DNA of 64,000 nt. Origin: Negativicutes bacterium. Lineage in GTDB: Bacteria; Bacillota; Negativicutes; JALHDB01. Of the stretch, positions 21,854-39,794 are shown one piece after another (the stretch's first letter is position 1; each line of letters begins with the position of its first letter). The stretch covers positions 211,763 to 275,762 of the forward strand of contig JALHDB010000001.1 of the NCBI GenBank assembly GCA_022840825.1, read 5' to 3'. The notes under the pieces are model-generated. The model did not search any database, was not told the origin of the DNA, and saw nothing but the letters and a program-made list of their open reading frames with translations. The position numbers and the translations under genes were made by a program.

Positions 21854-21857
21854 TTAT

Positions 21858-22717: not shown

Positions 22718-22726
22718 GGGGAAAAT

Positions 22727-23506: not shown

Positions 23507-24363
23507 TTAACGCTAGAACTAAATTCGTCGGGTTACTTGGCTGGCCGGTGGAGCACTCTCTCTCTCCGTTTATTCACAATCTGGCATTTGACCATTTTAA
23601 AATAAACTGGCGGTATATTCCCTTGCCTGTTCAGCCCGGTTGTTTAGAGCAGGCCGTAAGTGGGTTGAAAGCATTAAATTTTATTGGTGTAAACGTTACA
23701 ATTCCCCATAAAGTAGATATTGTCAAATATGTAGATGAATTAGATGATGCCGCAAAGGGGATCGGTGCAGTAAATACCTTGGCGATAGCGGGCAATAAGG
23801 TACACGGGTTTAATACTGATGCGGGAGGCTTTCTTAATTCGTTGATCCGTTGCGGATTTACCATTAAAGGTAAAAAGGCCGTATTACTGGGGGCGGGCGG
23901 AGCGGCCCGGGCCGTGATACATAGTTTGCTGCATAACGGAATTGCTGAAGTAGCGGTGGGTGGCCGTAATCAGGAAAAAATAAGCAAATGGTGTCAGGGG
24001 TTGGCCGGCATATTGCGGGTCAAGGCTTATGATTGGTTAAGTGCTGATTTTGCTAGTCAACTTAAAGATTGCGATTTAATTATAAACTGTACTCCGCTGG
24101 GAATGTCGCCTAATGCTTTTGAATATCCACCGGTAGATTGGAGTATAGTCAACTCCAGCGCCATCGCGTATGATTTAATATATAATCCGCTGGAAACATG
24201 TTTTTTGCAACAGGCTAAACAAAATGGATTGGCTACAATTAACGGATTGGCAATGCTCATTGAGCAAGCATTGCTGTCATTTTCGATCTGGACGGGTACA
24301 GATACTTCATCGGACAGATTATATGCACAAATTGAATCATATTTAAAGATGCAATTAAAATAA
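23503..24363 (+). CDS. aroE: shikimate dehydrogenase
   Basis: N-terminal GWPVEHSLSP and NVTIPHK signatures. NADP-binding GAGGAARA. Confidence 0.9.
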   Translation: MINARTKFVGLLGWPVEHSLSPFIHNLAFDHFKINWRYIPLPVQPGCLEQAVSGLKALNFIGVNVTIPHKVDIVKYVDELDDAAKGIGAVNTLAIAGNKVHGFNTDAGGFLNSLIRCGFTIKGKKAVLLGAGGAARAVIHSLLHNGIAEVAVGGRNQEKISKWCQGLAGILRVKAYDWLSADFASQLKDCDLIINCTPLGMSPNAFEYPPVDWSIVNSSAIAYDLIYNPLETCFLQQAKQNGLATINGLAMLIEQALLSFSIWTGTDTSSDRLYAQIESYLKMQLK

Positions 24364-24494
24364 AATTTTTTACAATTTTTTGCAGGATAATTTGTAAAAA
24401 TATAGAAGAAATTAAATAACAGAAAATTCATCTAACCGTTTGACGGTATATTCTACCGGCCAACGGTTGCTTTTTTTGCTGGAGAAGGTGGATT

Positions 24495-25715
24495 ATGGCC
24501 CAATTTTTTGTCTATCGTGCCAAAGATGATCAAGGCAAGGAATTCAAAGGTGAATTATTGGCTCCGGATAAGCATGCAGTTGCTGTTCATTTGCGGGAGA
24601 AGGGCTATTATATTACTGAAATTATAGTGAGCAGACGATCGATAGCTATGTCGGTGATGGAACATTTTCAGTCGGTAAGTGAACGAAGCTTGTCGATATT
24701 TTGCCAACAATTTGCTACATTAATGGATGCAGGAGTAAATTTAGTCCAAAGTTTAAGTGTGATATTAGCACAGACAAGCAATTTAACATTACAAAGTGTC
24801 TTGCAGGATGTCTATCAAAGCGTACAGGAAGGGGAGTCTTTAGCTCAGGCGTTGAACCGTCATCCCAGTACTTTTCCGCGGTTAATGATAAGTATGGTTG
24901 AAGCTGCCGAATTGGGCGGAGTATTGGATATTGTTTTACAGCAATTAGCTGAATATTTTGAAAAAGAGTATCAACTACAGGAAAAAATACGGGCCGCCTT
25001 GGTATATCCGCTTTTTGTGCTATGTTTAGCCGGTGGAGCGGTGACATTCATTATCATGTATGTATTTCCTCAGTTTGTCAATTTTTATAAGGATTTAAGA
25101 TTAGAATTACCTGCGCCGACATTACAGTTTATAAACTTTATGAGTAATATACGAAGCAATGGTGCGGAATATTTAGGTTGGCTTTTAGCTATAGTATGCG
25201 GGTTGTATGGCGCTAAACAGACCGTTCCGGGGCGTCAGGTTTGGGAAAGCCTTTTATTTCATTTGCCGCTGCTGGGGAATATCTGGCGTAAAAACTTAAT
25301 AGTAAGGTTTAGCCGAATGCTGAGTATTTTGCTGCAAGGCGGAGTTCCGCTGCTGCTGGCGGTCGAAGCAGTGAGAAAAATGGTTGATAACTTAACGATG
25401 AATAAGACACTGATAGCTGTTGAGAACAGCTTAAAAGCCGGCTGGGGGTTAAGTGTTCCTTTAAGAGAACAAGATTTTTTTACACCGGTTTTTATGCAAA
25501 TGATTTCAGTAGGAGAGCAAACAGGGAATCTTGACCGGGTTTTGGGCAAAGTAGCCGATGCTTATGAACGGGATGTTCAGCATTCCTTGGATTGTATGAA
25601 CCATTTGCTGGAACCGGTATTAATTACAATAACCGCAGGAATCGTCGGGTTTTTACTAATTGTTATTATTTTGCCTTTGTTTGAAGTTATTACCGATATT
25701 TCACGGGCATTATGA
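24495..25715 (+). CDS. type IV filament platform protein, GspF/PilC family (ComGB-like), copy 1
   Basis: Two GspF repeats, 3 TM, 406 aa. First gene of a pseudopilin operon. Confidence 0.9.
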   Translation: MAQFFVYRAKDDQGKEFKGELLAPDKHAVAVHLREKGYYITEIIVSRRSIAMSVMEHFQSVSERSLSIFCQQFATLMDAGVNLVQSLSVILAQTSNLTLQSVLQDVYQSVQEGESLAQALNRHPSTFPRLMISMVEAAELGGVLDIVLQQLAEYFEKEYQLQEKIRAALVYPLFVLCLAGGAVTFIIMYVFPQFVNFYKDLRLELPAPTLQFINFMSNIRSNGAEYLGWLLAIVCGLYGAKQTVPGRQVWESLLFHLPLLGNIWRKNLIVRFSRMLSILLQGGVPLLLAVEAVRKMVDNLTMNKTLIAVENSLKAGWGLSVPLREQDFFTPVFMQMISVGEQTGNLDRVLGKVADAYERDVQHSLDCMNHLLEPVLITITAGIVGFLLIVIILPLFEVITDISRAL

Positions 25716-25744
25716 TGCTTAAAGTTTTAAAAGAGGCGGTATGA

Positions 25745-26110
25745 GTGAGAAGGTTGGGATGCAATAGTAATAAAGGCTTAACGCTGGTTGAACTAATTGT
25801 TGTTCTTGCTATTATCAGCATATTGACTGGGATCGTGGTGCCTAAGATGGGTACAATTGTTGATCAGGCCAAAGATACTAAGCTGCTGGCTGATTTATGC
25901 TTACTAGACACAGTAATTATGGTTTATTATAGCGACCATAATGCCTATCCGGTGAAACTTGCCGATTTGGTTCCTGACTATATTCACTTAGAACCGCAGG
26001 ATGCTTTAGGACAAGCTTTTTATTACTTGGTTGATGAAGACGGGAACGGATATGTTTTAAAAGGAAAGAACACCTGTAATCAGGATGTGCAGTCAGAAGC
26101 AAGTCAATAG
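25745..26110 (+). CDS. prepilin-type major pseudopilin (ComGC-like)
   Basis: Class III signal KG/LTLVELIVVLAII followed by a short periplasmic domain. Confidence 0.75.
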   Translation: MRRLGCNSNKGLTLVELIVVLAIISILTGIVVPKMGTIVDQAKDTKLLADLCLLDTVIMVYYSDHNAYPVKLADLVPDYIHLEPQDALGQAFYYLVDEDGNGYVLKGKNTCNQDVQSEASQ

Positions 26111-26125
26111 CAAGAGGGTGTCGAA

Positions 26126-26602
26126 GTGAAACAGAAAAAGTACTTGTTTGCGCAAGGTTATTCTCTGGTGGAGTTTATAATTACGATATGCTTATTATTG
26201 ATTGCCGGTCAATTTGCATTGGCTTCGTATAAAGGTTTTTTAAACCTGCAATATAAGGTTAAATTGGATTGTGCGGTAAATATGGTAGCGGCGGATATTC
26301 GTCTCATTCAGCAAAAAAATCTTAATTCAGGGAATGGCCATTCGTACAAAATTTTATTTTTTACCGATTATCCTCAGCGATATATTATCGTTGACCGTCT
26401 TACCGCAATCAGACAAGTCACTTTTGATCAAAGCGGTTTTTCGGACGTACTTATACAGGGAGCACCGCCGGAAATAAAGTTCAACTCGGATGGTGTTCCG
26501 GTCTCAGGATACACTTTGATATTAAAGTCTAAAGGCCATATTCCGGTTTATAGCCGTCAGATTACCGTTCTACCGGCAACCGGGAGGGTGATGGTAAAGT
26601 GA
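26126..26602 (+). CDS. prepilin-type minor pseudopilin (ComGD/GspH-like)
   Basis: QG/YSLVEFII N-terminal methylation motif. Confidence 0.7.
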   Translation: MKQKKYLFAQGYSLVEFIITICLLLIAGQFALASYKGFLNLQYKVKLDCAVNMVAADIRLIQQKNLNSGNGHSYKILFFTDYPQRYIIVDRLTAIRQVTFDQSGFSDVLIQGAPPEIKFNSDGVPVSGYTLILKSKGHIPVYSRQITVLPATGRVMVK

Positions 26603-26976
26603 AAGGTTTCATTCTGGCTGAAGTAAGTTTAGCTATTTTAATATTGGGTACGGCGATTTTAACATTAATAAGTTTACTGTTGCCAATGGCGGTTGCAGTC
26701 CATCAGTCTAACAATCAGATGCAAGCAGTATATCTTGCTCAAGAGCAGATAGAGCGAATCAGGCAAGGTACGACAACAAAGACGGGGATGCAAACCATAT
26801 TATTCGATAATAAACGATACCAGCTATTGTGGAATGAAACAGTGCGGGATACTTATATTGAAACAGATTTAACACAAATAAACGTTAAAATTGAATGGAT
26901 GACTAATAGGGGACCCCAAGCGGTTTTGCTTTCGACATTATCTGCCGGAGGATTACCAACCGGCCCGCAATGGTAG
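26599..26976 (+). CDS. prepilin-type minor pseudopilin (ComGE/GspI-like)
   Basis: KG/FILAEVSLAIL N-terminal motif. Overlaps the upstream stop. Confidence 0.65.
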   Translation: MKGFILAEVSLAILILGTAILTLISLLLPMAVAVHQSNNQMQAVYLAQEQIERIRQGTTTKTGMQTILFDNKRYQLLWNETVRDTYIETDLTQINVKIEWMTNRGPQAVLLSTLSAGGLPTGPQW

Positions 26977-26983
26977 GAGCTAA

Positions 26984-27517
26984 ATGAAGAATATCAGAGA
27001 TAATGAGGATGGAATAAGTTTAATTGAAATTGTTTGCGGTTTTGCAATTACCGGCATCATTATAATATTGTTGTCCAGGATTGTATTTAGTTGGGGGCAA
27101 GGCTGGTCAAGAGAGCTGGCCCGTATCAATTTGCAACAGAATATGCGCGTTGCGGTAGAACTTATCAGTAAAGATTTTCGTTACCAGGGTGGCCGGGTAA
27201 TATATCCTGCTCTTGGACAGAGTGGCGGTTATTTAGAATTCAGGAATTTTGAAAATTATCGTACATATCGATTTTATTCGGCAAGACCGACGGATTTCGT
27301 GAAAATACCGACTGTTTACCGTTGGGTAAAAGATGATAATAATCTAGTGCCGGGAGTAAACCAACTAACCGAACCGAGTAGGGTCGAGGTCAAGAAATTA
27401 GTTTTTTACCGCGAAGGACAATATTCCATCCGTTTGCAGATAGTATTGTCCGATTACCTTACCGGGGCCGAAACTCAAATCGAGACGGTGATAACTTGCT
27501 TAAACAAAACCGGATAA
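26984..27517 (+). CDS. prepilin-type minor pseudopilin (ComGF/GspJ-like)
   Basis: DG/ISLIEIVCGFAI N-terminal motif. Confidence 0.65.
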   Translation: MKNIRDNEDGISLIEIVCGFAITGIIIILLSRIVFSWGQGWSRELARINLQQNMRVAVELISKDFRYQGGRVIYPALGQSGGYLEFRNFENYRTYRFYSARPTDFVKIPTVYRWVKDDNNLVPGVNQLTEPSRVEVKKLVFYREGQYSIRLQIVLSDYLTGAETQIETVITCLNKTG

Positions 27518-28464
27518 TTGCACAGAACGGTTCAGCTTCAATATTAATTATTTTAGTAATGGTGCTATTATTATGTATGGGTAGGGCAATACTCCCCGTC
27601 TTACGTACTGAGAAGGAAATCAGCAGGGAATTTTGCGATGGTGTGGCCGCTCAATATTTAGCAGAAGCCGGAATTCAACGGGCAATTTATGAATTAAACA
27701 AAAATATATTATGGGCAGGAATCCCTTATCCGGGAGAAGAATTGAATAATGAACTTTGTATCGGACGATATCGTGTTGAGGCTATTCCCTCCAGTGATGT
27801 TGTATGGGTTCGAGCTATTGGCAGTGTTAACACTGCCGAACGGATTGTTTCTTTTGCGTATGTTTGGCCGCCTAAGTCGAATGCCTACCAATATACGTTG
27901 TTTTCCGGCGATAATTTAACGATAGTTGACGCCAACAGTATTCAGGGCATAACTGTCGGTAGCCGTAAGCAGACACAGGTGGGCGGTAATTTTATTGAAG
28001 TTTCATCTAATTTGCTTGACATTACAATACCTGTACTAAACTGTAGTGGATATCAGTTGAGTCCGTATCGCCCGCCGATTACAGCGGAAATCAATAAAGG
28101 AATTGGCTTGTCCGGAGTGGTATATTATTATGAATCAGCGCAAGAACTTCCCTGGGAGATTGAAAAGTATAAAACTTTAGCCGGCAATGGTGTAATTTAT
28201 AGCAAAAATAGTATTATTATCAATGAGGGTGTAAAAATGCCCGGACGTATTAGCCTCATTTCGGAAAGAAGTATTATTGTCGGAAAGGGCGCGGCAATTA
28301 ATAATGCGTTGTTACTTGCCCGGCAGAATATAGATATAAAAGAGAATGTTGTGTTTAGCGGTATAGCCATAGCAGGAGGAACGATGTCAATTGGCGGCGG
28401 GACATCAATAAAACGGAATGCAAATGCCGTAAACAGAATACAAACAAACTATACTTATAATTGA
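27496..28464 (+). CDS. minor pilin, ComGG/PilX/GspK-like (no Glu5)
   Basis: N-terminal hydrophobic segment NGSASILIILVMVLLL without a conserved Glu. 322 aa. Last pilin-like gene of the operon. Confidence 0.55.
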   Translation: MLKQNRIIAQNGSASILIILVMVLLLCMGRAILPVLRTEKEISREFCDGVAAQYLAEAGIQRAIYELNKNILWAGIPYPGEELNNELCIGRYRVEAIPSSDVVWVRAIGSVNTAERIVSFAYVWPPKSNAYQYTLFSGDNLTIVDANSIQGITVGSRKQTQVGGNFIEVSSNLLDITIPVLNCSGYQLSPYRPPITAEINKGIGLSGVVYYYESAQELPWEIEKYKTLAGNGVIYSKNSIIINEGVKMPGRISLISERSIIVGKGAAINNALLLARQNIDIKENVVFSGIAIAGGTMSIGGGTSIKRNANAVNRIQTNYTYN

Positions 28465-28481
28465 GCGGAGGAGAAGATTAA

Positions 28482-28757
28482 ATGTTTCTCAAGAATTATA
28501 TGGAAGATTTGGTCTGGGAACGGTTAGATGAAGTGATCAATGGACACGCGGGAGCATGTAACTGCCAACGCTGTCGGTATGACATTGCTGCATTGGCACT
28601 CAACTTTTTACCTACTCGTTATGTAGTGACTGAGAAAGGGGAGACTTATACTAAAGTACAGGCTTTAGAGCAGCAGTTTTATATTGATATTGTTAGTGCC
28701 ATCAGTAGGGCCATTACTATTGTTATCCATCATCCCCGCCATGAGCAAGAAGATTAG
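28482..28757 (+). CDS. comFB: ComFB family late-competence protein
   Basis: Four-Cys motif CNCQRCRYDIAALALNFLPTRYVV, characteristic of ComFB. 91 aa. Confidence 0.65.
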   Translation: MFLKNYMEDLVWERLDEVINGHAGACNCQRCRYDIAALALNFLPTRYVVTEKGETYTKVQALEQQFYIDIVSAISRAITIVIHHPRHEQED

Positions 28758-28763
28758 TAAATT

Positions 28764-28812
28764 AGAAAAGCAGTATCAACTAATAACGGATTAGTCGATA
28801 CTGCTTTTCTAA
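28764..28812. terminator. bidirectional terminator between the convergent comG-like operon and pilQ
   Basis: 14-nt arms agaaaagcagtatc / gatactgcttttct. Confidence 0.6.
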
Positions 28813-28824
28813 TTGTTGAAGATT

Positions 28825-30039
28825 CTAAGGCTCAATGATTTTTGCTGTTAAAAATATTACAACTTCGGTTTCAGTTTTCGAGTTACTTACATTGCGAAAC
28901 AAATTACCTAGAATTGGCAGTTGGCTTAAAAACGGAATCCTACTATTATTTTTTGATTCTTCACTGCCAATCAAGCCGCCAATTACTAATGTTTCACCGT
29001 TTTTCATTCTTACTTGTGTATCGGCTTGGCGGGTAGTGATCTTATAGTTCTTGATTTCTGATACTAAAGTTGGTGTACTGACTTCAGTATGTACTTTGGC
29101 CGAAATTAGACCGTCGGCGTTAATTCGCGGCGTATAAGAGAGTTTAATGCCGGCATCGACATATTCAGTGCTGTACGTGGAAACACCGTTTTCCTTTTTT
29201 TCGGTCAGGACCGGAATGTGGTCACCGATAAAAATTACTGCTTCTTTACCGTCGATAGTGGATATTTTGGGCTTAGCTAAAATTTTAGCATTGCCTTTAG
29301 CAACTAACGCGTTGATTTGGGCTTGATACAGAAATTCAAATGGTTTGCCATTGTAGCTGCCAAACTTGATCGAACCTTTAGTAGAGGAAGAGTCGGAGGT
29401 TGAAGAGGATGTATCGGAATCTGAATCAGTACTCTGCTGGGTAGGTGTTTTGTCCCACTCCCATTGGATACCCAAATCCTTGCTGGCTGATTTACTAATG
29501 GCTACGACCTGAGCTTCTAATGAAACTTGTTCATAAGGAACATCTAAGTTTTTCAAGGCTTCAGCCAGTTTATGCGCTTCGGAGTCAGTGCCGACAAAAA
29601 CCAAAGAATTAGTAGCATTGTCAACTTTTATCCGATCGTCAGGAATAATCAATACCAGCGATTTTTTAAGATCTTCAGCCTTGGCATATTTTAATTTTAT
29701 AACTTGTACTGTACCAAAACCTTTGGACATTTTTTCCGGCGACGAAACTACAATTACATTACTCACTACTTGATAAGTCAAGCCTTTGGTCTTAGTTACC
29801 AGGTCCAGCGCCGTCTCAAACGGGATATTTTTTAATTCGATAGTTATTTTACCAGTGACCGAGTCATCAGCAACAATACTGATTCTGCCCACCGCCGATA
29901 ATGCTGTTAATACATCGCGAACTTGAGCGTCCGTTACAGTCAGATTAACTAATTTTGCCGGTACCGCCGCTGCAACAGAATTGAACAGTAAGCCGGCGCA
30001 TATGCATAACGCTAGAATAAGATGTTTCTTGGCTCTCAT
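28825..30039 (-). CDS. pilQ: type IV pilus secretin (PilQ/GspD family)
   Basis: Signal peptide and an N-terminal secretin N domain. An S/T/D-rich linker follows. C-terminal secretin domain (LVIGGLI...IPFLSQLPILGNLFR). Confidence 0.85.
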   Translation of the reverse strand: MRAKKHLILALCICAGLLFNSVAAAVPAKLVNLTVTDAQVRDVLTALSAVGRISIVADDSVTGKITIELKNIPFETALDLVTKTKGLTYQVVSNVIVVSSPEKMSKGFGTVQVIKLKYAKAEDLKKSLVLIIPDDRIKVDNATNSLVFVGTDSEAHKLAEALKNLDVPYEQVSLEAQVVAISKSASKDLGIQWEWDKTPTQQSTDSDSDTSSSTSDSSSTKGSIKFGSYNGKPFEFLYQAQINALVAKGNAKILAKPKISTIDGKEAVIFIGDHIPVLTEKKENGVSTYSTEYVDAGIKLSYTPRINADGLISAKVHTEVSTPTLVSEIKNYKITTRQADTQVRMKNGETLVIGGLIGSEESKNNSRIPFLSQLPILGNLFRNVSNSKTETEVVIFLTAKIIEP

Positions 30040-30044
30040 TGTTA

Positions 30045-30530
30045 CTACCTCCTTAAGGGTAAGACCTGCCGGCCATTGGCACTGTATAATGTGACGGAGT
30101 TATCACTGATTGCAATGAGTTGATAAGGACCAATCTTATCTTGCAACCGGTGATAACGGCTTTTGCCGTTATATTCAAGTATTGCAACCCGGTAATTATT
30201 TGTTTTTACGATCCCGGTAAGAACAGGCAGACCTAGGTGTTCGTAACTAGCAGCCTTAGAACCACCTTGATAAGTCAATGGTCCGGATTGTTTGGTCAAT
30301 GTGCTAGGCATCTTAAACGGGTCCCGCATGATTTTGTTAGCTATATAGCCATTGGGCAGTAGCGGTTTATTATCGGCAGCAGCAACTATAGCCTTGGGTG
30401 GATTCGCCGGAACTGTTGCCGGAGGTATAACTGGCGATGTAGATTGTAAGTAGAATAAAATGCCAACTAAGAAAAGGAGCGTAAATAACAGGTATTTACT
30501 ATATTTTCGCGAAAAAAAAGATTTGAACAT
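30045..30530 (-). CDS. PilP-like pilus assembly protein (inner-membrane anchored)
   Basis: N-terminal TM and a Pro-rich linker. RDPF motif and C-terminal beta-domain. Sits immediately upstream of pilQ. Confidence 0.5.
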   Translation of the reverse strand: MFKSFFSRKYSKYLLFTLLFLVGILFYLQSTSPVIPPATVPANPPKAIVAAADNKPLLPNGYIANKIMRDPFKMPSTLTKQSGPLTYQGGSKAASYEHLGLPVLTGIVKTNNYRVAILEYNGKSRYHRLQDKIGPYQLIAISDNSVTLYSANGRQVLPLRR

Positions 30531-30929
30531 CTATATCTCTCCAATTGGCAAAATTACTGATATTTCTTGTTTATTTTCTACATTACGTAATATTATCCTC
30601 TATTTATGGTCGACAATTGTAAAAAACAATGAAGATATTGCGGTGGTAATTTGAAAGGGAATTTAAAACAGTGATGCGCCGGACTGCTGGCGAATCAAGG
30701 ATTTGGCTACCCGTTATTTGCGCAGTAAATATTCCGGCAATCTATCTGGAGGCTTATGATTTGTGGCAAGGATGGGAAAATTATGATAGACATCGTTGCT
30801 GCCGGTGAATGATTATGATGCAAAGGCAGGAAATTTGTCATTATTAAAGAAATTACAACTGCAAAGATATTAATAGTACAGACAAAAACATGAATTAATT
30901 CGGTTACTAATGATCTAAGTAATAAGGGG

Positions 30930-32615
30930 ATGATGACTATGCTGCCAAGGCGAAAAAGATTAGGCGATTTATTGATAGAAGCCGGCTTGATTCAAGAACA
31001 GCAACTGAACAAAGCACTGGAGGTCCAAAAAAGAACTGGGGAAAGATTAGGTAAAGTCCTAATTAACTTGGGCTATATTACTGAGGAAAGAATTATTGAG
31101 GTCTTGGAGTTTCAACTGGGTGTTCCGCATCTTGATTTGATGAGTCTTCATGTTCCCCGTGAAGTTGCCGCACTGATTCCGGTGTCGCTGGCTGAACGAT
31201 ATCAGGTAGTTCCCGTGCAAAAAGAAGGAAAGATAATCAAATTGGCGATGGTCGACCCGACTAATTATTATGCCATCGAAGATGTCCGGATGGTCACCGG
31301 CTGTGAGGTACAACCGGTGATAGCTTCGGAACGAAGTATAATGCAAATAATTAATCAATCGTTTGGGGTGCAGGATTTAGTAGATAAAGTAGTGGACAAG
31401 CTTCGGCCCGAAGATGTTGCACTTATATCAGAATTGGAAACGGCCGACGATGCGCCGATTATTAGTATTGTAAATTCAATTATTGCCCAGGCCGTCAAAA
31501 ACCGGGCCAGTGATATTCATATTGAGCCGCTGGATAAGTCATTGCGGATCCGTTTTCGAATCGATGGTGTTTTGCGCGAGATATCAACATTTCCTAAGCA
31601 TATTCACCCTGCTATTTTGTCGCGGATAAAAATTATGAGCAGTATGGACATCGCGGAAAAACGACTGCCGCAGGACGGACGGATCAAAATTCAAGAATTT
31701 GGTCGCGATATTGACATTCGTGTTTCAACATTGCCTACTATTACCGGTGAAAAAGTAGTTATGCGGATATTGGATAAACAGACGGTGATATTGAATGTTA
31801 CGGGATTAGGTGTCAGTAAAGCAAATCTGCCAAAATTCCGGCAACTGTATTCGCAGTCTTATGGAATGGTCTTGGTCACCGGACCAACCGGTTCAGGTAA
31901 GTCAACAACGCTTTACTCAGTATTAGCTGACGTAAATGCACCGGGTATGAATATTATTACGGTCGAAGATCCGGTTGAATATCGGTTGGAGGGAATTAAC
32001 CAAGTTCAAGTAAATCAAAAAGCCGGACTGACATTTGCCAATGGCTTGCGTTCCATCTTAAGGCAAGATCCCAATGTTATTATGGTCGGTGAGGTTCGGG
32101 ATACGGATACGGCCGACATTGCCATCCGGGCTGCTTTAACCGGTCATTTGGTTTTTACTACCTTACATACCAACGATGCCTCCGGGGCAGTAACCAGATT
32201 AGTTGATATGGGAGTCGAACCGTTTTTGGTCGCTTCGTCAGTATTGGGAGTTGTTGCCCAGCGATTAGTCCGAACGATTTGCAGCGATTGTAAACAAAAG
32301 TATTTCTTGCCGCCAGATGCACCGGAACGATTATTTTTAGGTGTGGAAAAAGATACGCAAATTGAATTATATCGCGGCACAGGCTGTCCGCGTTGTGATT
32401 ATACCGGCTATCGAGGACGGATGGCCATTCATGAAATTATGGTGGTTAGTCCTCAGTTAAGAGACGCAATTAATAAACGCCTTTCCAGTGATGAAATTAA
32501 AGTTATTGCCATGCAAGAGGGAATGACCACTATGAAGCAGGACGGTATTGATAAAGTTTTTCAAGGTTTAACTACTATCGAAGAAGTCATTCGCGTAGCG
32601 TATTCGGGACTGTAA
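30930..32615 (+). CDS. pilB: type IV pilus assembly ATPase (GspE family)
   Basis: N-terminal T2SE_N domain. Walker A GPTGSGKST. Tetracysteine CxxC...CxxC. Confidence 0.9.
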   Translation: MMTMLPRRKRLGDLLIEAGLIQEQQLNKALEVQKRTGERLGKVLINLGYITEERIIEVLEFQLGVPHLDLMSLHVPREVAALIPVSLAERYQVVPVQKEGKIIKLAMVDPTNYYAIEDVRMVTGCEVQPVIASERSIMQIINQSFGVQDLVDKVVDKLRPEDVALISELETADDAPIISIVNSIIAQAVKNRASDIHIEPLDKSLRIRFRIDGVLREISTFPKHIHPAILSRIKIMSSMDIAEKRLPQDGRIKIQEFGRDIDIRVSTLPTITGEKVVMRILDKQTVILNVTGLGVSKANLPKFRQLYSQSYGMVLVTGPTGSGKSTTLYSVLADVNAPGMNIITVEDPVEYRLEGINQVQVNQKAGLTFANGLRSILRQDPNVIMVGEVRDTDTADIAIRAALTGHLVFTTLHTNDASGAVTRLVDMGVEPFLVASSVLGVVAQRLVRTICSDCKQKYFLPPDAPERLFLGVEKDTQIELYRGTGCPRCDYTGYRGRMAIHEIMVVSPQLRDAINKRLSSDEIKVIAMQEGMTTMKQDGIDKVFQGLTTIEEVIRVAYSGL

Positions 32616-32628
32616 TGGGGGGGATACA

Positions 32629-33678
32629 GTGATAGAGGATCTACTTAAAGAAGCAGTTGACCGGAATGCTTCCGATATTCATATTACGGTAGGAGTACCG
32701 CCTGTTTTCCGTATTAACGGTATGCTGGTGCAAACAGACAGGCCTAAACTGGCTGTGCGCGATACGGAAAACATGCTGAATGCTTTGACCAATTCTGAGC
32801 AATTGCGTAAATTTCTTGATAACGGCGAACTGGACTTTTCTTATGCAATTCATGGATTAAGCCGTTTCAGAATTAATGCTTTTCGGCAACGGGGCACAAT
32901 TGCAATTGCCATCAGAACGGTAAATGAACAAGTACCGAATTTGGATCAGCTAGGCTTTCCGGATGTTGTTAAAACGTTAGCCCGCAAGCCACGGGGGCTG
33001 GTACTGATAACCGGGCCGACCGGCAGCGGAAAATCGACTACTATGGCGGCGATGATCGATTTGATAAATCAGGAAAAGTTTTGTCATATCATTACGCTGG
33101 AGGACCCCATAGAGTATCTGCATAAGCACCACAAAAGCATAATCAATCAACGGGAGATCAATGCTGACAGCAAATCTTTTGCCAATGCGTTGCGGGCGTC
33201 ATTACGGGAAGATCCGGATGTAATATTGGTGGGAGAAATGCGGGACATGGAAACTATCGGCATTGCTATTACGGCAGCCGAGACCGGGCATTTAGTGCTG
33301 GCAACATTGCATACCCAGGATTGTGCGCAGACAATTGACCGGATTATCGATGTATTTCCGCCTTATCAGCAGCAGCAGGTCCGGATTCAGTTATCCTTGA
33401 CCTTACAGGGTATAGTTGCCCAGCAATTGCTTCCCCGCAAAGATGAAAGCAACCGGGTTGCCGCTTTAGAGATATTGGTAGCAACACCGGCAATACGCAA
33501 TCTTATTCGCGAAGGCAAAACCCACCAAATCTTGTCGGTGATTCAGACCGGCAGTAAGTATGGTATGCAGTCAATGGATATGGCGTTGCGTGATTTATAC
33601 CGAACCGGAACTATTTCTTACGAGGATGCCGTAGCCCGGGCAATGGATTATGAGACCTTTGTGCGACTAATGCATTAG
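32629..33678 (+). CDS. pilT: twitching motility retraction ATPase
   Basis: ASDIHI, GPTGSGKST and AIRNLIREGK (PilT signature). Confidence 0.9.
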   Translation: MIEDLLKEAVDRNASDIHITVGVPPVFRINGMLVQTDRPKLAVRDTENMLNALTNSEQLRKFLDNGELDFSYAIHGLSRFRINAFRQRGTIAIAIRTVNEQVPNLDQLGFPDVVKTLARKPRGLVLITGPTGSGKSTTMAAMIDLINQEKFCHIITLEDPIEYLHKHHKSIINQREINADSKSFANALRASLREDPDVILVGEMRDMETIGIAITAAETGHLVLATLHTQDCAQTIDRIIDVFPPYQQQQVRIQLSLTLQGIVAQQLLPRKDESNRVAALEILVATPAIRNLIREGKTHQILSVIQTGSKYGMQSMDMALRDLYRTGTISYEDAVARAMDYETFVRLMH

Positions 33679-33732
33679 CTTTGAGCAGCGTGAATGGCCA
33701 GCAAGCAAACGATTAGACGGGGGAATGTGTAA

Positions 33733-34956
33733 ATGCCAACAACTTATCAATATACTGTCCGTGATAGGGCCGGGCAGGTATCTTCCGGCTCGGTTGTAGC
33801 GGAAAATCCTCCGGCCGCGGCAGCCTTTTTGCGGGACAAGGGCTATTATGTTACTTCGATCAAACAGGCCAAACAACAACAAACCACCCTTGCGCAGGCA
33901 TTTGAGCAATTGCAGCAAATATCCGCTAAGGATTTGGCGATTTTCTGCCGGCAGTTTGCCACCATGGTTGATGCCGGGTTGCCGCTGGTTTCTTGTCTGA
34001 ATGTATTAATAGAGCAAACTCAAAAGGCTAAATTAAAGGATGCCCTGCAAGGTGTGTATAAGAAGGTGCAGGAAGGAGAATCGTTAGCCGGCGCTTTGCA
34101 AAGCTACAGCTCGGTTTTTCCTAAAATTATGGTCAGCATGATTGATGCCGGTGAAGTAGGCGGAGTATTGGATGTCGTATTGAACCGGCTGGCTATTCAT
34201 TTTGAAAAAGAGCACAAAGTGAATGAAAAAGTTAAATCAGCGATGGTCTATCCGGCGGTAGTAATATTTATGGCTGCCTTGTCGGTGAGTTTTATTTTGG
34301 TGTTTGTGTTGCCGACATTTTTAAAACTGTTTGATAACATGAAAATCCAATTGCCGCTGCCGACCAGAATTCTATTGTCATTCAGCGATATTCTTAAAAA
34401 TTATTGGTTTATTGGTATTCTCGCTATAATTGCCGCCGTCGTAGGCTGGAATTATCTTATGCGGCGCAAACAATACCAGTCAATTAGAGATCGCTTTCTT
34501 CTGCAAGTTCCGGTTTTCGGCGATTTATTCCGCAAAATCGCGGTGGCTAGGTTTAGCCGGACCTTCGGTACGTTGGTACAAAGCGGGGTACCGATTATTT
34601 CGGCGTTGGATGTAGTTAAGCAGACGGCCGGCAACATTAATATTGAGGAGGCATTAGAACGGGCGCAAAAAAGCGTGACTGAAGGCGCGCGGCTGGCAGT
34701 TACACTGGCCGGCAGCAAAGTGTTTACCCCGATGGTTATTCAAATGATTGCTATTGGGGAGGAAAGCGGTCAGTTGGATAAAATGCTGGAAAAAATCGCC
34801 GAATTTTATGAAAACGAAGTAGACGAAACCGTCGGTCGCCTGAGTACGCTGATGGAACCGTTTTTGATTGCCATATTAGGTATAGTTATTGGTCTTATTG
34901 TTATTTCAATTGCTTTGCCGTTATTTGATGTTGTAACAAATTTCGGCAGAATTTGA
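33733..34956 (+). CDS. pilC: type IV pilus platform protein GspF/PilC, copy 2
   Basis: 407 aa. Paralogous to 24495..25715. Two GspF repeats. Confidence 0.9.
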   Translation: MPTTYQYTVRDRAGQVSSGSVVAENPPAAAAFLRDKGYYVTSIKQAKQQQTTLAQAFEQLQQISAKDLAIFCRQFATMVDAGLPLVSCLNVLIEQTQKAKLKDALQGVYKKVQEGESLAGALQSYSSVFPKIMVSMIDAGEVGGVLDVVLNRLAIHFEKEHKVNEKVKSAMVYPAVVIFMAALSVSFILVFVLPTFLKLFDNMKIQLPLPTRILLSFSDILKNYWFIGILAIIAAVVGWNYLMRRKQYQSIRDRFLLQVPVFGDLFRKIAVARFSRTFGTLVQSGVPIISALDVVKQTAGNINIEEALERAQKSVTEGARLAVTLAGSKVFTPMVIQMIAIGEESGQLDKMLEKIAEFYENEVDETVGRLSTLMEPFLIAILGIVIGLIVISIALPLFDVVTNFGRI

Positions 34957-34995
34957 TAATGATTTAATTTTAATATAAATTTTCTGTAAAAAATA

Positions 34996-35025
34996 TTTAC
35001 TAAATGACTATTTGCAGTATATAAT
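34996..35025 (+). promoter_or_regulatory. candidate promoter for pilA (TTTACT-18-TATAAT)
   Basis: Hexamers upstream of the strong GAGGAGG RBS of the pilin gene. Confidence 0.35.
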
Positions 35026-35094
35026 TTGAGTAAATAGAAAAATATGTATGTTTAATGAAATTATATTATTTAAGGTTAGAGGAGGAAGTTAATC

Positions 35095-35493
35095 ATGTTG
35101 AGAAATATTAGACAACAGCTGCAAAAGCAGCAAGGTTTCACATTAGTTGAACTGGTGGTCGTAATCGCCATTATTGGTATTTTAGCAGCAATTGCTGTAC
35201 CGAAATTTACCAGTGCGACTGATTCTGCAAAAGGGGCAAAAGTTCAAGCCGATTTAAGAACCGTTGACAGTGCTATAGCATTAGTTATTGCGGAGACAGG
35301 AAGTACTCCCAGCGACGGTGAATTAAGTGCGAATGCTACTGTATTAGCAAAATTATCGACAACTTCAATTGCGCCGGCAACGACCTTTAAAGTAGGCGCA
35401 ACCAATTATACCTGTGATGGAAAGTACTACATAAATAGTGGAAGAGCTGCGGTTAAAATTGAAACAGATTATAAAACAGTTGAGCAGCTCTAA
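35095..35493 (+). CDS. pilA: type IV major pilin
   Basis: Class III signal QQG/FTLVELVVVIAIIGILAAIAVP. Confidence 0.85.
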   Translation: MLRNIRQQLQKQQGFTLVELVVVIAIIGILAAIAVPKFTSATDSAKGAKVQADLRTVDSAIALVIAETGSTPSDGELSANATVLAKLSTTSIAPATTFKVGATNYTCDGKYYINSGRAAVKIETDYKTVEQL

Positions 35494-35530
35494 TATTCAA
35501 ATACTTTAAAACACTATTTTAAAAGTTAGT

Positions 35531-35566
35531 AAAACCAAGAGGTCAATTGGCTTCTTGGTTTATTTG
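35531..35566 (+). terminator. terminator/attenuator hairpin after pilA
   Basis: aaccaagagg...cttcttggtt stem followed by a tatttg tract. Confidence 0.5.
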
Positions 35567-35585
35567 TAATATATACCGACTATAG

Positions 35586-36347
35586 ATGGGAAGTACAATT
35601 ATGATTGAGTTGTTGCTAGGGACAATTGGTTTAGTTATCGGTAGTTTTTTAAATGTTTGCATTTACCGGCTGCCGCTGGGTATGTCGGTCGTTAGGCCGC
35701 CATCCCATTGTCCGGCTTGCAAGAGCAGATTAACCGCCTGGGATTTAGTGCCGGTTGTCAGCTATATTTTTTTACAAGGCCAGTGCCGTCATTGCCAGGC
35801 TAAGATTTCCGGCCGGTATGCCATGGTGGAACTGCTTACGGCTGTAATATTTTTAATTTGTCTGCGAACATTAGGTTTAACTGATTTTCTGCCGGCGGCA
35901 TTGATATTTGCCTGCTTTATGATTGTAATTACGTTTATCGATTATGACCATCAGCTCATTCTTGATTCAGTGCTGATTCCCTTGGCGGTTACCGGACTGA
36001 TTGTTAATAGTTGGCTGCATTCACTTGGTTTGGCGGACATGCTGATCGGCAGCTTAGCCGGCGGCGGTTTGCTGCTGGTCCTTGCTATTGCCAGCCGGGG
36101 CGGTATGGGCGGCGGCGACATTAAATTTGCGGCGGCTCTCGGTATTTGGCTGGGTTGGAAATTAACCTTGGTTGCACTGCTGCTAGCGTTCATCATGGGC
36201 GGATTCGGCAGCATGCTGCTAATGATTTTAAAATTAAAGAAACGTAAAGATATGATACCGTTTGGCCCGTTTATTGCCATTGGTGCCTTTATCTCACTAT
36301 TATACGGTAACCAAATTCTCGTTTGGTATTTACGCAGCTTTTTATAA
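35586..36347 (+). CDS. pilD: prepilin peptidase (A24 family)
   Basis: N-terminal CPACKSRL...CRHC zinc knuckle. 8-TM with catalytic Asp motifs. Confidence 0.9.
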   Translation: MGSTIMIELLLGTIGLVIGSFLNVCIYRLPLGMSVVRPPSHCPACKSRLTAWDLVPVVSYIFLQGQCRHCQAKISGRYAMVELLTAVIFLICLRTLGLTDFLPAALIFACFMIVITFIDYDHQLILDSVLIPLAVTGLIVNSWLHSLGLADMLIGSLAGGGLLLVLAIASRGGMGGGDIKFAAALGIWLGWKLTLVALLLAFIMGGFGSMLLMILKLKKRKDMIPFGPFIAIGAFISLLYGNQILVWYLRSFL

Positions 36348-36448
36348 TATGATATTTTTTTTCACAGGATATTGGTCAATATGGTAAATACTGCAGGAGC
36401 AGCCCGGATTTTGTTGAATAATTAAATACAATCGAAGATAATTGCAGT

Positions 36449-37549
36449 TTGGCCAATTTTAAGATGCAAGGAGATATCTTAATGTTAAGGTTTATAAACA
36501 GTTTTTTTCCCCGTGATCCGAAAATTTTATTAGGCATTGATATTGGGGCCACTGAAATAAAGATTGCCGAAGTTGTCAACAGCAAACAGCCGGTTTTAAA
36601 TAATATTGCCAGTTTAGACTATTCATTTGATGTAACAATCGAACATGATTCGGCTGAACTGACCGATTTGGGCGGACAACTGCGCCGTCTGCTTAACATT
36701 AATGGATTTTCTGCCAAACATGCTGTATTTGCGGTTGGCGGACGTCATGTTTTTGTACGGGAAGTAGAAGTTCCGTTTATGACCGATACGGAGTTAAAAG
36801 AAGCTGTTAAATGGGATATAGAAAGATATGTGCCTTATGAAACAGATGCTTATTACTATGATTTTTCGGTAGTTGGGCCGGGTAAGACGGATATGCAATT
36901 GAAGCTATTGCTGGTGGCTTCGCCTAAAGCTGTTATTGACCATATAGCTGCACTGGCTAAGAGTGCCGGAATCCGGCCGGTAGCCATCGAAATAGAGTCG
37001 GCGGCATTGGCCCGGACGATGGTAACCGGCAGTAAGCAAATACTGGTTGCTGATATTGGCTATGATTATTCGCAGTTAACCGTATTTAGAAAAGATATAC
37101 CGACGGTAATTCGTTCAGTACCTATCGGCGGTAAGCATTTTACTAAAGCGGTGGCGAATTCCTTAAATTTAGACATGGAAGAAGCCGAACGGCTGAAGAC
37201 TCGCCAGCAAGGACTGTTGCAGCGGGATATTACGTCGGAAACTTCAGAACTGCATAATCAACTGCACATGATTGTTGCCGAATTTGCTACTGAAATTCGC
37301 CGTACAGCAGAGTTTTATCAACTGCAAAATCAGGACGCCGTAGTTGAATCAATAATATTAACCGGCGGCGGGTCCGGCTTGGATAATCTGATTCCTAATT
37401 TAATCGGTCAATTAGGTCCGAATATCCAGCTGCATAATCCGTTGATTGGTTTCAAGGGAATTGACCGCTTTGATGAAATATATCTTGCTCAAAACGCCGC
37501 CCGTTTTGCGGTTGCCGTAGGATTGGCGTTGCGTGGAGGTGAAAAATAA
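36449..37549 (+). CDS. pilM: type IV pilus assembly protein PilM (actin-like ATPase fold)
   Basis: LGIDIGATEIKIAE N-terminal motif. ~350 aa. Confidence 0.85.
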   Translation: MANFKMQGDILMLRFINSFFPRDPKILLGIDIGATEIKIAEVVNSKQPVLNNIASLDYSFDVTIEHDSAELTDLGGQLRRLLNINGFSAKHAVFAVGGRHVFVREVEVPFMTDTELKEAVKWDIERYVPYETDAYYYDFSVVGPGKTDMQLKLLLVASPKAVIDHIAALAKSAGIRPVAIEIESAALARTMVTGSKQILVADIGYDYSQLTVFRKDIPTVIRSVPIGGKHFTKAVANSLNLDMEEAERLKTRQQGLLQRDITSETSELHNQLHMIVAEFATEIRRTAEFYQLQNQDAVVESIILTGGGSGLDNLIPNLIGQLGPNIQLHNPLIGFKGIDRFDEIYLAQNAARFAVAVGLALRGGEK

Positions 37550-38076
37550 TGAAAATAAATTTGTTGCCTCCGCAAGAAAGACCGCAAGGTCTTACCCGTA
37601 AGAAACTTTTTAGTATCGTGTCAGCTCTGGTATTGTTTAGTTATGCGGTAATCTTTAGTTACAATCAATATGTGTTGTGGAACTTAAACGACGAACTATT
37701 GGCTGTGGATGCGCAATACCAACTGCTGCGTCCGGCGGAACAGAAAATGTTGGCGGCGTTAGCCAAACAAACAGCTTATAATCAGCGCAACAGCCTGCTG
37801 GTCAAGTTGTCCAGAGAAAGAAAGTCTTGGCATGCCGCTTTATCGAGGTTGGGCTATATTACGCCGCCCAAGGTATGGTTGACCCAGGTTTCAACAGTTG
37901 ACCGGACGTATGTCAAAATACTTGGTCAAGCAGCAAGCTATTCTGAATTGGCTGCTTTCTTGACGAATATGGGCCAGGACGAGATATTTACTGCACCGAT
38001 GCTTATTTCAGCCGACCAAGATAATAGATCTAATCTGACAAAATTTGAAATTGTCGTAAAAATTAAGGAGACATAA
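37549..38076 (+). CDS. pilN: type IV pilus assembly protein PilN
   Basis: MKINLLPP start, single TM, coiled-coil periplasmic part. Confidence 0.8.
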   Translation: MKINLLPPQERPQGLTRKKLFSIVSALVLFSYAVIFSYNQYVLWNLNDELLAVDAQYQLLRPAEQKMLAALAKQTAYNQRNSLLVKLSRERKSWHAALSRLGYITPPKVWLTQVSTVDRTYVKILGQAASYSELAAFLTNMGQDEIFTAPMLISADQDNRSNLTKFEIVVKIKET

Positions 38077-38079
38077 CCA

Positions 38080-38646
38080 ATGCTGGAAATAAAAAAAATA
38101 ACGGCAAAAGTTTATAATATGATTTTTGCGGCGCTCATAGTATTGTCGGCAATTGTATTTTATAATTTTTTCTTTCAGCCGCAACAAGACCAAATTGCTT
38201 TGGCCCGAAATACACTTTCCATCCACCGACAGCGGGTTGCCGTGGTAGAGTCATTTGTACGAAGTCACCCTGATGCCGATAATTACTTGTCGGAATTGGA
38301 TGCCAAATTGATGTCGGCGCAGCGATTATTGCCGGATCAAACGATTATGTCGGCCTTATTATTGGAAGTTCAACAGGCGGCGCAAGATTCCGGTGTTAAG
38401 TTATTACGATTGAAGCCGCAAAAAGTTGTTATGAAGGCGGCTTACAGTGAAATTCCGATTGAAGTGGATATTCGCGGTAATTACTTTTCCCAGCTTAAAT
38501 TTTACAATTACCTTGAAAACAGATTACGCTTTAGTATTGTAAATAAGGTTAACATCCAAGCCCAACAGGGAATACTAGATACAAAACTTACCATTATTTT
38601 TTATGATTATATTACTAAAAACAATAAGATTAACAACAAGGGGTGA
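38080..38646 (+). CDS. pilO: type IV pilus assembly protein PilO
   Basis: N-terminal TM and coiled-coil. Position directly after pilN. Confidence 0.7.
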   Translation: MLEIKKITAKVYNMIFAALIVLSAIVFYNFFFQPQQDQIALARNTLSIHRQRVAVVESFVRSHPDADNYLSELDAKLMSAQRLLPDQTIMSALLLEVQQAAQDSGVKLLRLKPQKVVMKAAYSEIPIEVDIRGNYFSQLKFYNYLENRLRFSIVNKVNIQAQQGILDTKLTIIFYDYITKNNKINNKG

Positions 38647-39794
38647 ACAAGTTGCGCTATTTAACCGCAGGGGAGTCGCATGGGCCGGCATTAACCGCAA
38701 TAATTGAAGGATTGCCGGCCGGGTTAAAAATAGATTTGGATGATATAAACCATGAGTTGTATCGGCGCCAGCAAGGGTTCGGCCGTGGCGGGCGGATGGC
38801 CATCGAACAAGACCAAGTTAAGGTTTTATCCGGGGTGAGGTTTGGCCAAACCCTCGGGAGTCCGGTAACGTTACAGATCGAGAACCGTGATTGGGAGAAC
38901 CGCAGCCGGGACATGGCTGTCTTTGGCTCTGAGACCGGCAATATATTGTCCGCTCCGCGCCCCGGACATGCTGATTACTGTGGCATGCTAAAATATAACC
39001 ATCGGGATATTCGAAATATTTTGGAGCGGGCCAGCGCTAGGGAAACAGCAGCCAGAGTTGCGGTTGGTGCTATCGCCAAGCAATTATTGGCTGTTTTTAA
39101 TATTCATTTGATTTCGCATGTTATCAATATCGGCGGAGTGGTTATAAAAAAACAAGCTGTAGATTATGAGTTGGTTGCCGCCCGGCGTGATAATGAATTT
39201 GGCTGTATCGATCCGTCAGTTGTCGAAGAAATGCGTCGGGCTGTTACGACCGCGCAACATAATAAAGACACCTTGGGCGGCGCTTTTGAAATAATAACTA
39301 CGCCAATAATTCCCGGGTTGGGCAGTCATGTTCAATGGGACCGGCGTCTTGATGCCCAATTGGCTGCAGCTGTTGCTTCGGTACCGGCGATTAAAGGGGT
39401 GGAGTTCGGTGATGGTTTCGAATATGCCGGTATTCCCGGCAGTCAGGCACATGATGAATTTAGTGTTGATGATGGCGTCATTAATCGTACTTCTAACCAC
39501 GCCGGCGGCTTGGAAGGCGGCATGACCAATGGTCAGCCGGTTATTCTGCGTGCTGTTATGAAACCTATTCCGACGTTGATGCAGCCGCTGGCTTCGGTGG
39601 ATATGATTACCGGCCGGCCGGTACCGGCGGTGAGTGAACGCAGCGATGTGTGTGCGGTTCAGGCTGCCGCAGTGGTGACAGAAGCAATGGTAGCGATAGT
39701 ACTAGCCCAAGCACTGTTGGAAAAATTCAGCAGTGATTGTATGGCCGACTTGCAACATTCGGTTCAGGAATATCTTCAGCGTATAGGTGGTTAA
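38643..39794 (+). CDS. aroC: chorismate synthase
   Basis: RYLTAGESHGPAL N-terminal signature and further AroC motifs. Confidence 0.95.
   Translation: MNKLRYLTAGESHGPALTAIIEGLPAGLKIDLDDINHELYRRQQGFGRGGRMAIEQDQVKVLSGVRFGQTLGSPVTLQIENRDWENRSRDMAVFGSETGNILSAPRPGHADYCGMLKYNHRDIRNILERASARETAARVAVGAIAKQLLAVFNIHLISHVINIGGVVIKKQAVDYELVAARRDNEFGCIDPSVVEEMRRAVTTAQHNKDTLGGAFEIITTPIIPGLGSHVQWDRRLDAQLAAAVASVPAIKGVEFGDGFEYAGIPGSQAHDEFSVDDGVINRTSNHAGGLEGGMTNGQPVILRAVMKPIPTLMQPLASVDMITGRPVPAVSERSDVCAVQAAAVVTEAMVAIVLAQALLEKFSSDCMADLQHSVQEYLQRIGG

Follow-up and report, generated by a model that had tools for sequence, protein, structure and literature searches.

In a 64-kb stretch of a Negativicutes contig (hereafter the window, to which all positions refer), we analysed the locus at 24495-38646, where type IV pilus (T4P) genes lie in two operons within a cluster of aro genes. 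Comparison of its genes with those of related loci suggests that the locus probably encodes a single type IVa pilus (T4aP) machine, split across the two operons by a lineage-specific rearrangement. The parent cluster is the conserved pilus cluster of Sporomusales-type Negativicutes, which is embedded in the aro gene cluster. The original prediction had instead read the locus as two filament systems, a ComG-like competence pseudopilus (operon 1) and a type IVa-like pilus (operon 2), sharing one motor, one peptidase, and one outer membrane channel. Five of the seven genes of operon 1 do not fit this two-system reading.

The window matches the metagenome-assembled genome GCA_022837255.1. Annotation was based on a listing of open reading frames (ORFs) with their translations, followed by Pfam and NCBIfam scans of 24495-38646, and gave the following features.

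22211-23506, plus strand: HAD hydrolase and CN hydrolase genes, before aroE
23503-24363, plus strand: aroE (shikimate dehydrogenase), the upstream flank; Pfam Shikimate_dh_N, E = 3e-27
24495-25715, plus strand: PilC1 (operon 1), 406 amino acids (aa); Pfam T2SSF in two stretches, 194 bits
25745-26110, plus strand: pilin1 (operon 1), 121 aa, signal motif G/LTLVE; N_methyl, E = 4e-8
26126-26602, plus strand: minor pilin H (operon 1), 158 aa, G/YSLVE; in the GspH/FimU position
26599-26976, plus strand: minor pilin I (operon 1), 125 aa, G/FILAE, PilV/GspI-like; weak PilV, GspI, and ComGE matches
26984-27517, plus strand: minor pilin J (operon 1), 177 aa, G/ISLIE; in the GspJ/PilW position
27496-28464, plus strand: minor pilin K (operon 1), 322 aa, G/SASIL, without the glutamate at position 5 (Glu5); in the GspK/PilX position
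28482-28757, plus strand: ComFB (operon 1), 91 aa; Pfam ComFB, E = 1e-26
28825-30039, minus strand: PilQ-type secretin, 404 aa; STN, Secretin_N, and Secretin domains
30045-30530, minus strand: PilP/GspC HR-domain protein (P161), 161 aa; typed by fold, with no Pfam match of its own
30531-30929: intergenic region separating the divergent secretin pair and pilB, with the remnant of an HD-domain gene at 30667-30790
30930-32615, plus strand: PilB (operon 2); T2SSE, 1e-142, and MshEN, 1e-19
32629-33678, plus strand: PilT retraction ATPase (operon 2); TIGR01420, 490 bits against a cut-off of 319
33733-34956, plus strand: PilC2 (operon 2); T2SSF, 212 bits
34996-35561, plus strand: pilA unit (operon 2), with the PilA coding sequence at 35095-35493, G/FTLVE; N_methyl, 6.7e-10
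35586-36347, plus strand: PilD prepilin peptidase/N-methylase (operon 2); A24_N_bact, 3e-34, and Peptidase_A24, 2.5e-20
36449-38646, plus strand: PilM, PilN, and PilO, the alignment subcomplex (operon 2); PilM_2, 1e-44, PilN, 2.7e-11, and PilO, 5.8e-14
38643-41398, plus strand: aroC, aroK, and aroB, the downstream flank; Chorismate_synt, 9e-116

The complete parts list of a T4aP machine is present in this locus, comprising a PilB-type ATPase, PilT, PilC, PilD, a G/FxxxE prepilin, PilMNO, and a PilP-type protein together with a PilQ secretin. All 18 genes of the original prediction were recovered at their coordinates by ORF listing and translation, and profile matches (Pfam and NCBIfam) or fold comparison assigned a type to 16 of them. 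Its account of the gene content was borne out: ORFs, profiles, and signal motifs place a PilC paralog, five prepilin-type proteins (one of them lacking the glutamate), and ComFB in operon 1; the Pfam and NCBIfam matches place PilB, PilT, a second PilC, the probable major pilin, PilD, and PilMNO in operon 2; and coordinates and Pfam matches agree with bracketing by aroE and aroC-aroK-aroB. As it had also stated, neither a GspE-type ATPase nor a prepilin peptidase is encoded in operon 1 (24495-28757). The end of operon 1 and pilB are 2.2 kb apart, a correction of the earlier 2 kb, and the secretin pair occupies this interval. PilM_2, PilN, and PilO were all confirmed, with PilN and PilO above the Pfam cut-offs and PilM at 193 bits with TIGR01175 (cut-off, 133); PilM probably starts 11 codons past the start of the longest ORF, and gene calls on the same contig give it 355 aa. 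In a second assembly of the same species (L002, GCA_022838805.1), aroC appears as two ORFs, pilB is called at 515 aa, and pilA is uncalled, which are probably assembly or frameshift errors.

To place the locus among its relatives, we compared at least 80 secretin loci from species-representative genomes, extended by the contigs on which the closest homologues of three window proteins (the secretin, PilC1, and K) are encoded, with Thermosinus and Anaeroselena fetched separately; all loci were mapped using the window proteins. Six related loci (L007 from Sporomusa sp. KB1, L009, L087, L088, L090, and L091/L092) have a single operon in the order aroE-pilB-T-C-A-D-H-I-J-K-comFB-pilM-N-O-aroC-aroK-aroB, with one PilC and one PilA each. 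Between pilD and pilM in these relatives lie four prepilin-type genes and comFB, and the four prepilins carry the same signal motifs as those of the window, the last one likewise without Glu5. Identities between the window proteins and their L090 and L091 orthologues, which begin with the gene after pilD, are 34 to 35% for H, 21 to 28% for I, 40 to 42% for J, and 39 to 43% for K, and ComFB is 57 to 62% identical to the product of the comFB gene preceding pilM in relatives. Because the same block sits inside the single T4P operon of six relatives, sequence comparison identifies the four minor pilins (H to K) and the ComFB encoded in operon 1 as the resident minor-pilin and regulator module of one pilus, with the pilins most likely its tip or priming set. 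H-I-J-K is also the sole minor-pilin set in the locus, since pilO runs directly into aroC. In L091, two ORFs (3114-4809; 151 and 423 aa) each match PilB, indicating that pilB has a frameshift or is a split gene.

The window genome shares the split arrangement with a single sister, L086, whose secretin is 92% identical; it was seen in no other genome compared. Three traits are confined to these two genomes, namely, the division into two operons, the extra PilC and pilin heading the detached module, and the position of the secretin pair between the operons. L086 carries an intact HD-domain gene of 205 aa (8741-9358) between the PilP-like gene and pilB, and the window retains at 30667-30790 a short 3' remnant of this gene (69% identity over 26 aa by tblastn); therefore, a deletion has occurred in the divergent promoter region of the window. 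Promoter-like sites are found on both strands of this intergenic region (30531-30929).

A T4P locus that includes PilQ is known to be conserved in Negativicutes and Halanaerobiales (Antunes et al. 2016, PMC5007114). The window resembles that locus, and the Veillonella parvula locus, in that a diderm Firmicute encodes PilB, PilT, PilC, and PilD together with a pilin, pilin-like genes, and a secretin, with close homologues in Sporomusa, Thermosinus, and Phascolarctobacterium, and it shares the aro-cluster embedding with the compared Sporomusales-type loci. It differs in that its relatives have one operon and one PilC, whereas the window has a separate upstream minor-pilin/ComFB operon led by an extra PilC and pilin and a secretin pair on the opposite strand between the two operons.

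Core minor pilins, FimU-PilV-PilW-PilX in T4aP and GspH-I-J-K in type II secretion systems (T2SS), form a priming and tip complex, for example, in Myxococcus xanthus (PMC7541494). The H-to-K block resembles these sets in being four consecutive genes of about 158, 125, 177, and 322 aa that overlap or nearly overlap at their starts (the start of I overlaps the stop codon of H), of which the last is large and lacks Glu5 and the second has weak PilV, GspI, and XpsI matches (NCBIfam PilV, 2.7e-6; XpsI, 2e-5; GspI, 4.8e-4; all under the cut-off). Operon 1 thus presents four or five prepilin-type genes in the order and sizes expected of a FimU/PilV/PilW/PilX-like core, with family matches that are all sub-threshold. 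H has a weak XpsH match (E = 0.01), J has weak matches to PRK10557 and to the HpsC pseudopilin, and K matches no Pfam or NCBIfam family. In contrast to the described core sets, the window has no PilY1-like gene, and its proteins fall below every cut-off of the defining families.

K shares a conserved motif, GSASIL...FRDGVAAQYLAEAG, with the gene preceding comFB in relatives. A search for its homologues returned four relatives only, and an AlphaFold2 (AF2) model built on this shallow alignment had a predicted local distance difference test score (pLDDT) of 47; its C-terminal half may form a beta-solenoid. A C-terminal extension of 190 to 250 aa is present in the K proteins of the window, L087, L088, and L091. 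The K-type pilin of Sporomusa sp. KB1 (L007, 5417-5809) has 130 aa and consists of the N-terminal pilin-like part alone, and the extension is thus an optional module.

Operon 1 resembles the ComG operon (comGA-GG) of monoderm Firmicutes, with which it shares a platform, a major pilin, four minor pilins, and a linked ComFB-family gene; its order of PilC, pilin, and four minor pilins matches comGB-GC-GD-GE-GF-GG. A competence pseudopilus of PilC1, pilin1, its own minor pilins, and ComFB that borrows PilB, PilD, PilMNO, and the secretin from the type IVa pilus would also be in keeping with the constraint on PilC1 and pilin1 described below and with the requirement for T4P loci in transformation of Negativicutes (PMC5397411). 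However, the ComG models did not bear out this identity. PilC1 scored 128 bits with ComGB (cut-off, 240), the weakest of six platform models, and its ranking of platform models (GspF, PilC, HofC, XpsF, ComGB) is that of PilC2. Pilin1 scored 33 bits with ComGC (cut-off, 75), one of its weaker models, against 37 bits for PilA, which ranks the models in much the same way, and the ComGE and ComGD models gave 25 to 26 bits (cut-off, 49) and 15 bits (cut-off, 70), respectively. Operon 1 genes thus fall outside the families of the ComGB-ComGG models, PilC2 and PilA score above PilC1 and pilin1 on the same models, and there is no ComGA, as no ATPase gene lies between 24495 and 28757. Unlike a ComG operon, moreover, the window locus includes a secretin, PilT, and PilMNO. 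These profile scores suggest that operon 1 is ComG-like in gene order only.

Several further observations speak against a separate pseudopilus. In six relatives, H-I-J-K and ComFB are encoded in the only T4P operon; as the sole minor-pilin set, H-I-J-K would be needed by PilA pili too; pilin1 lacks its own promoter and terminator; and a single one-PilC locus suffices for competence in Veillonella (PMC5397411). We therefore regard a borrowed-parts competence pseudopilus as unlikely, and the claim of a separate system did not hold for H, I, J, K, and ComFB. What did stand of the original interpretation are the two PilC paralogs, the two PilA-like pilins, and the sharing of parts, in that within this locus operon 1 could work only with the PilB, PilD, and PilMNO of operon 2 and the minus-strand secretin. 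DNA uptake is a plausible function of the single pilus, by analogy and with no need for a second system, because Veillonella parvula loses at least 3 logs of transformation when its T4P locus, which has one PilC, is deleted (Knapp et al. 2017, PMC5397411). In the 42 further ORFs of the window that were scanned or read, we found no comEA, comEC, dprA, comFA/FC, or second ATPase gene.

The secretin passes the Pfam cut-offs for Secretin (3.7e-46), a single Secretin_N, and STN (N0), has no AMIN domains, and scores 241 bits with the TIGR02515 PilQ model, below its cut-off of 284. The original prediction had described it as short and divergent, with a linker rich in S, T, and D. The linker is there, at residues 199-222; an unusually short, divergent secretin was rejected, as homologues of 372 to 488 aa occur in the hundreds across Negativicutes, including Sporomusa, Sporolituus, Anaeroselena, and Phascolarctobacterium, and that of Thermosinus carboxydivorans is 65% identical. 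These homologues mark the source organism as a Sporomusales-type Negativicute.

The PilP-like label given to the neighbouring gene product, P161, was upheld by its fold. In an AF2 model built on the alignment of its family (pLDDT, 82.8), residues 8-29 form a transmembrane helix, which is joined by a disordered linker to a beta-domain (103-158) whose pLDDT is 96 to 98. In a Foldseek comparison with the PDB, 14 of the 15 best matches were GspC-HR, PilP, or LspC and the remaining one was GspB, and the best match, 3oss_C, had a TM score of 0.76 and a root mean square deviation of 2.1 Å. The family profile matched GspC-HR (2LNV) at E = 0.0012. By its modelled fold, P161 is a membrane-anchored PilP/GspC-HR-domain protein, resembling PilP (2Y4Y) and GspC HR (3OSS, 2LNV) in its small C-terminal beta-sandwich domain. 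It has a transmembrane anchor as in GspC and, unlike PilP, no lipobox cysteine in its translation; unlike GspC, it has no PDZ or coiled-coil domain; and its gene accompanies pilQ, whereas the PilP gene follows pilO. A library-wide HMMER search gave a family of 138 cluster representatives, of 90 to 240 aa save for two much longer ones, among which 15 of the 72 members scanned matched Pfam T2SSC and 3 of 72 matched PilP.

A P161-type gene lies directly upstream of the secretin gene in at least 29 loci. The two always occur together, yet they take at least five positions relative to the aro/pilus cluster across Negativicutes: between the two operons (window), upstream of the HAD hydrolase gene and aroE (L087), in the gap between aroE and pilB (L027), between aroC and aroK (Sporomusa sp. 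KB1 and L009), and at a distance from the pilus genes, with a response regulator after the pair (Thermosinus and Anaeroselena). The loci compared with the window pair (28825-30530) for its placement were L007, L009, L027, L084, L085, and L087.

A further reading is that PilC1 and pilin1 form, with P161 and the secretin, a T2SS-like pseudopilus on shared parts. The best NCBIfam models for PilC1 and pilin1 are GspF and GspG, the P161 family matches T2SSC more often than PilP, P161 is membrane anchored like GspC, and there is a report of one T2SS in diderm Firmicutes (PMC6668835). However, GspF, GspG, and GspE are also the best matches of PilC2, PilA, and PilB, pointing to an effect of the clade and not of operon 1, and all of these scores are below the cut-off save that of PilB with GspE (633.4 bits with TIGR02533 against a cut-off of 630.25; the TIGR02538 PilB model gave 632.6 bits against 675.65). 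The locus has PilT and PilMNO and lacks GspL and GspM, P161 has the HR domain only, and in relatives P161 and the secretin occur alongside T4P loci that have one PilC. A T2SS-like pseudopilus is thus very improbable.

PilC1 and pilin1, which head operon 1, are the new element of the locus. PilC2 is 55 to 57% identical to the single PilC of L007, L087, L088, and L091, and PilC1 is 40 to 42% identical to the same proteins, which marks PilC2 as the orthologue of the relatives' single PilC. PilC1 and PilC2 are 38% identical to each other. Only two close orthologues of PilC1 were found among 5.8 billion proteins, with all others at 42% identity or less, and in a neighbour-joining tree (100 bootstraps) it lies on a long branch among Negativicutes PilCs, with support of 32 to 38%. 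Pilin1 is a PilA/GspG-like prepilin that shares 42% identity with PilA in its N-terminal 67 aa, and no second pilin of its kind was found in the single-operon relatives compared.

The presence of the pair in two sampled genomes only and the long PilC1 branch might suggest redundant leftovers of duplication or transfer with no distinct role, but both ORFs are full length and both T2SSF domains of PilC1 are intact. Ratios of nonsynonymous to synonymous divergence (dN/dS), computed between the window genes and those of the sister genome L086, were 0.10 for PilC1 and 0.11 for pilin1 at dS of about 0.7 to 1.0, a constraint like that on PilC2 (0.086) and PilM (0.089). Every gene that yielded a ratio was under purifying selection (ComFB yielded none, since its dS was not estimable), and PilA, at 0.235, was second highest after PilD and P161 among 18 genes with a ratio. 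Because dN/dS of about 0.10 signifies purifying selection, PilC1 and pilin1 appear to be functional and not decaying, and we consider it highly unlikely that they are leftovers.

The two pilins differ in how their genes are set. The pilA gene has a promoter-like site at 34996-35025 (TTTACT-18-TATAAT, 10 of 12 matches), a GGAGGA ribosome-binding site, and a terminator-like hairpin at 35532-35561 with a 13-bp stem followed by a T-rich tail. In contrast, the sequence scan found no promoter-like site or terminator-like hairpin belonging to pilin1, which is separated from its neighbours by 29 and 15 nucleotides. Because, of the two, only pilA has these signals and pilin1 is tightly packed in its operon, PilA is probably the abundant, exposed major pilin and pilin1 a lower-level subunit.

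We propose that operon 2 and the minus-strand pair encode the machine proper, with PilB as the extension ATPase bearing an MshEN domain that would bind cyclic di-GMP (c-di-GMP), PilT as the retraction ATPase, PilC2 as the platform, PilA as the major pilin, PilD as the prepilin peptidase, and PilMNO as the alignment subcomplex. P161 would bridge the inner membrane parts (PilNO) and the N0 domain of the secretin. Operon 1 is, on this reading, a minor-pilin module of four minor pilins in GspH-I-J-K order with ComFB, in which H-I-J-K most likely prime assembly and form the filament tip or cap, and ComFB most likely couples pilus output, and perhaps DNA uptake, to c-di-GMP or cyclic di-AMP (c-di-AMP), as suggested by its family. 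PilC1 and pilin1 are divergent, constrained extra copies of pilC and pilA heading operon 1. A tandem duplication from pilB to comFB, followed by complementary gene losses, would yield exactly the gene order observed. Our best guess for the pair is an accessory or alternative platform and pilin on the shared machine, and it is also possible that pilin1 is a fifth, adaptor-type pilin with an accessory platform.

A more far-reaching alternative is that PilC1 and pilin1 form an exchangeable cassette, in which shared PilB/PilT, PilMNO, P161, secretin, and H-I-J-K build either a PilA filament on PilC2 or a pilin1 filament on PilC1. A pilin1 filament or pseudopilus on PilC1 could then serve, for example, DNA uptake, and cyclic dinucleotides, acting through ComFB and the PilB MshEN domain, would determine which filament is made. 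We know of no description of platform swapping that selects the filament type on one diderm machine. The Thermus PilA4/PilA5 and cyanobacterial minor-pilin systems have one PilC each. These are cases of one machine with two filaments (PDB 6XXD and 6XXE) or several minor-pilin sets (10.64898/2026.02.12.705559), and the window resembles them in that its locus combines two PilA-like pilins with a single ATPase set, peptidase, and secretin. It differs in that a second platform accompanies the second pilin and that there is one minor-pilin set only. We regard the cassette as tentative and rather unlikely.

Some observations weigh against a single machine divided by local rearrangement. That the second platform and pilin are constrained implies some function for them, which the description of one machine leaves unspecified. 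The H, I, J, and K labels depend on gene order, size, weak sub-threshold matches, and the missing Glu5 of K, and against PDB sequences the profiles of the four proteins match the shared pilin N-terminal helix only (as that of H does) or nothing. PilC1 is slightly nearer to other Sporomusales PilCs (40 to 42%) than to PilC2 (38%), and given the low tree support, descent as an old paralogue or by horizontal acquisition is as likely as local duplication.

The single pilus may be under cyclic-dinucleotide control. ComFB proteins bind c-di-GMP and c-di-AMP and are found in T4P operons of Thermoanaerobacterales (PMC12448109), and in Synechocystis ComFB/CdgR controls pilus biogenesis and competence (PMC12448109; 10.1101/2023.11.27.568819). 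The window ComFB scores 93 bits with PF10719 (cut-off, 25) and 38.5 bits with the Bacillus equivalog model, below its cut-off of 120; it matches Bacillus subtilis ComFB (4WAI) at E = 7.5e-7 and the Synechocystis c-di-GMP receptor (8HJA) at E = 0.0035, and CxCxxC, Asp34, and Asn41 are conserved in the alignment. It is therefore likely, judging from these residues and matches, to be a c-di-GMP/c-di-AMP receptor, and it is a fixed part of these pilus operons. Like the ComFB/CdgR receptors, it is a stand-alone protein of about 90 aa with the CxCxxC and Asp/Asn residues, encoded in a pilus operon beside minor pilins; it differs in terminating an operon without an ATPase. PilB has two tandem RLGxxLIxxGxI...Q motifs at residues 10-62 (window positions 30930-31120) and is probably itself a c-di-GMP receptor, besides ComFB, because it passes NF053729, the model of an MshE-related c-di-GMP-binding domain (75.5 bits; cut-off, 38). 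An Rfam search of the whole window at gathering thresholds returned no c-di-GMP riboswitch or other RNA, and nor did a search of 24300-36500 at E ≤ 1.

Around the locus, a TldD/PmbA gene lies downstream of aroC-aroK-aroB, SKI (aroK) and DHQ_synthase (aroB) were found in the gene calls of orthologous loci, and the HAD hydrolase gene and aroE are also upstream of the pilus operon in L087 and L091. Upstream of the HAD hydrolase-aroE block, 20594-22088 holds a 76-aa ORF without a family match, preceded by a gene for a Y-family (IMS/DinB-type) polymerase. Farther upstream (778-4000), a GH25 lysozyme gene precedes a region of low GC content (0.32 over 2001-4000), in which two ORFs on the minus strand, each of about 200 aa, match nothing in Pfam; this may be a phage or mobile-element remnant. 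On the other side, three adjoining genes of NAD_synthase-like, AIR carboxylase-like, and LarC families (48385-51240) resemble a LarE-LarB-LarC nickel-pincer cofactor cluster, and genes for YdjC-like, LPG_synthase_TM, NAD-dependent epimerase, and PMT_2 (ArnT-like) glycosyltransferase proteins (53826-58226) may be an envelope or lipid-modification cluster. No tRNAs were found in the window.

Overall, the Negativicutes T4P locus with PilQ (2016) and ComFB within pilus operons (2025) are already known, and what is new here is the split operon and the extra PilC-pilin pair without an ATPase, a small, lineage-restricted variant of a described locus type. Its recognition guards against a wrong call, as an ATPase-less minor-pilin/ComFB operon resembles a second system yet is a detached module of one pilus. 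A constrained PilC and pilin presumably cotranscribed with priming pilins constitute a natural test of the role of the platform in pilin choice, and cyclic-dinucleotide control of the pilus could act at two points, PilB and ComFB.

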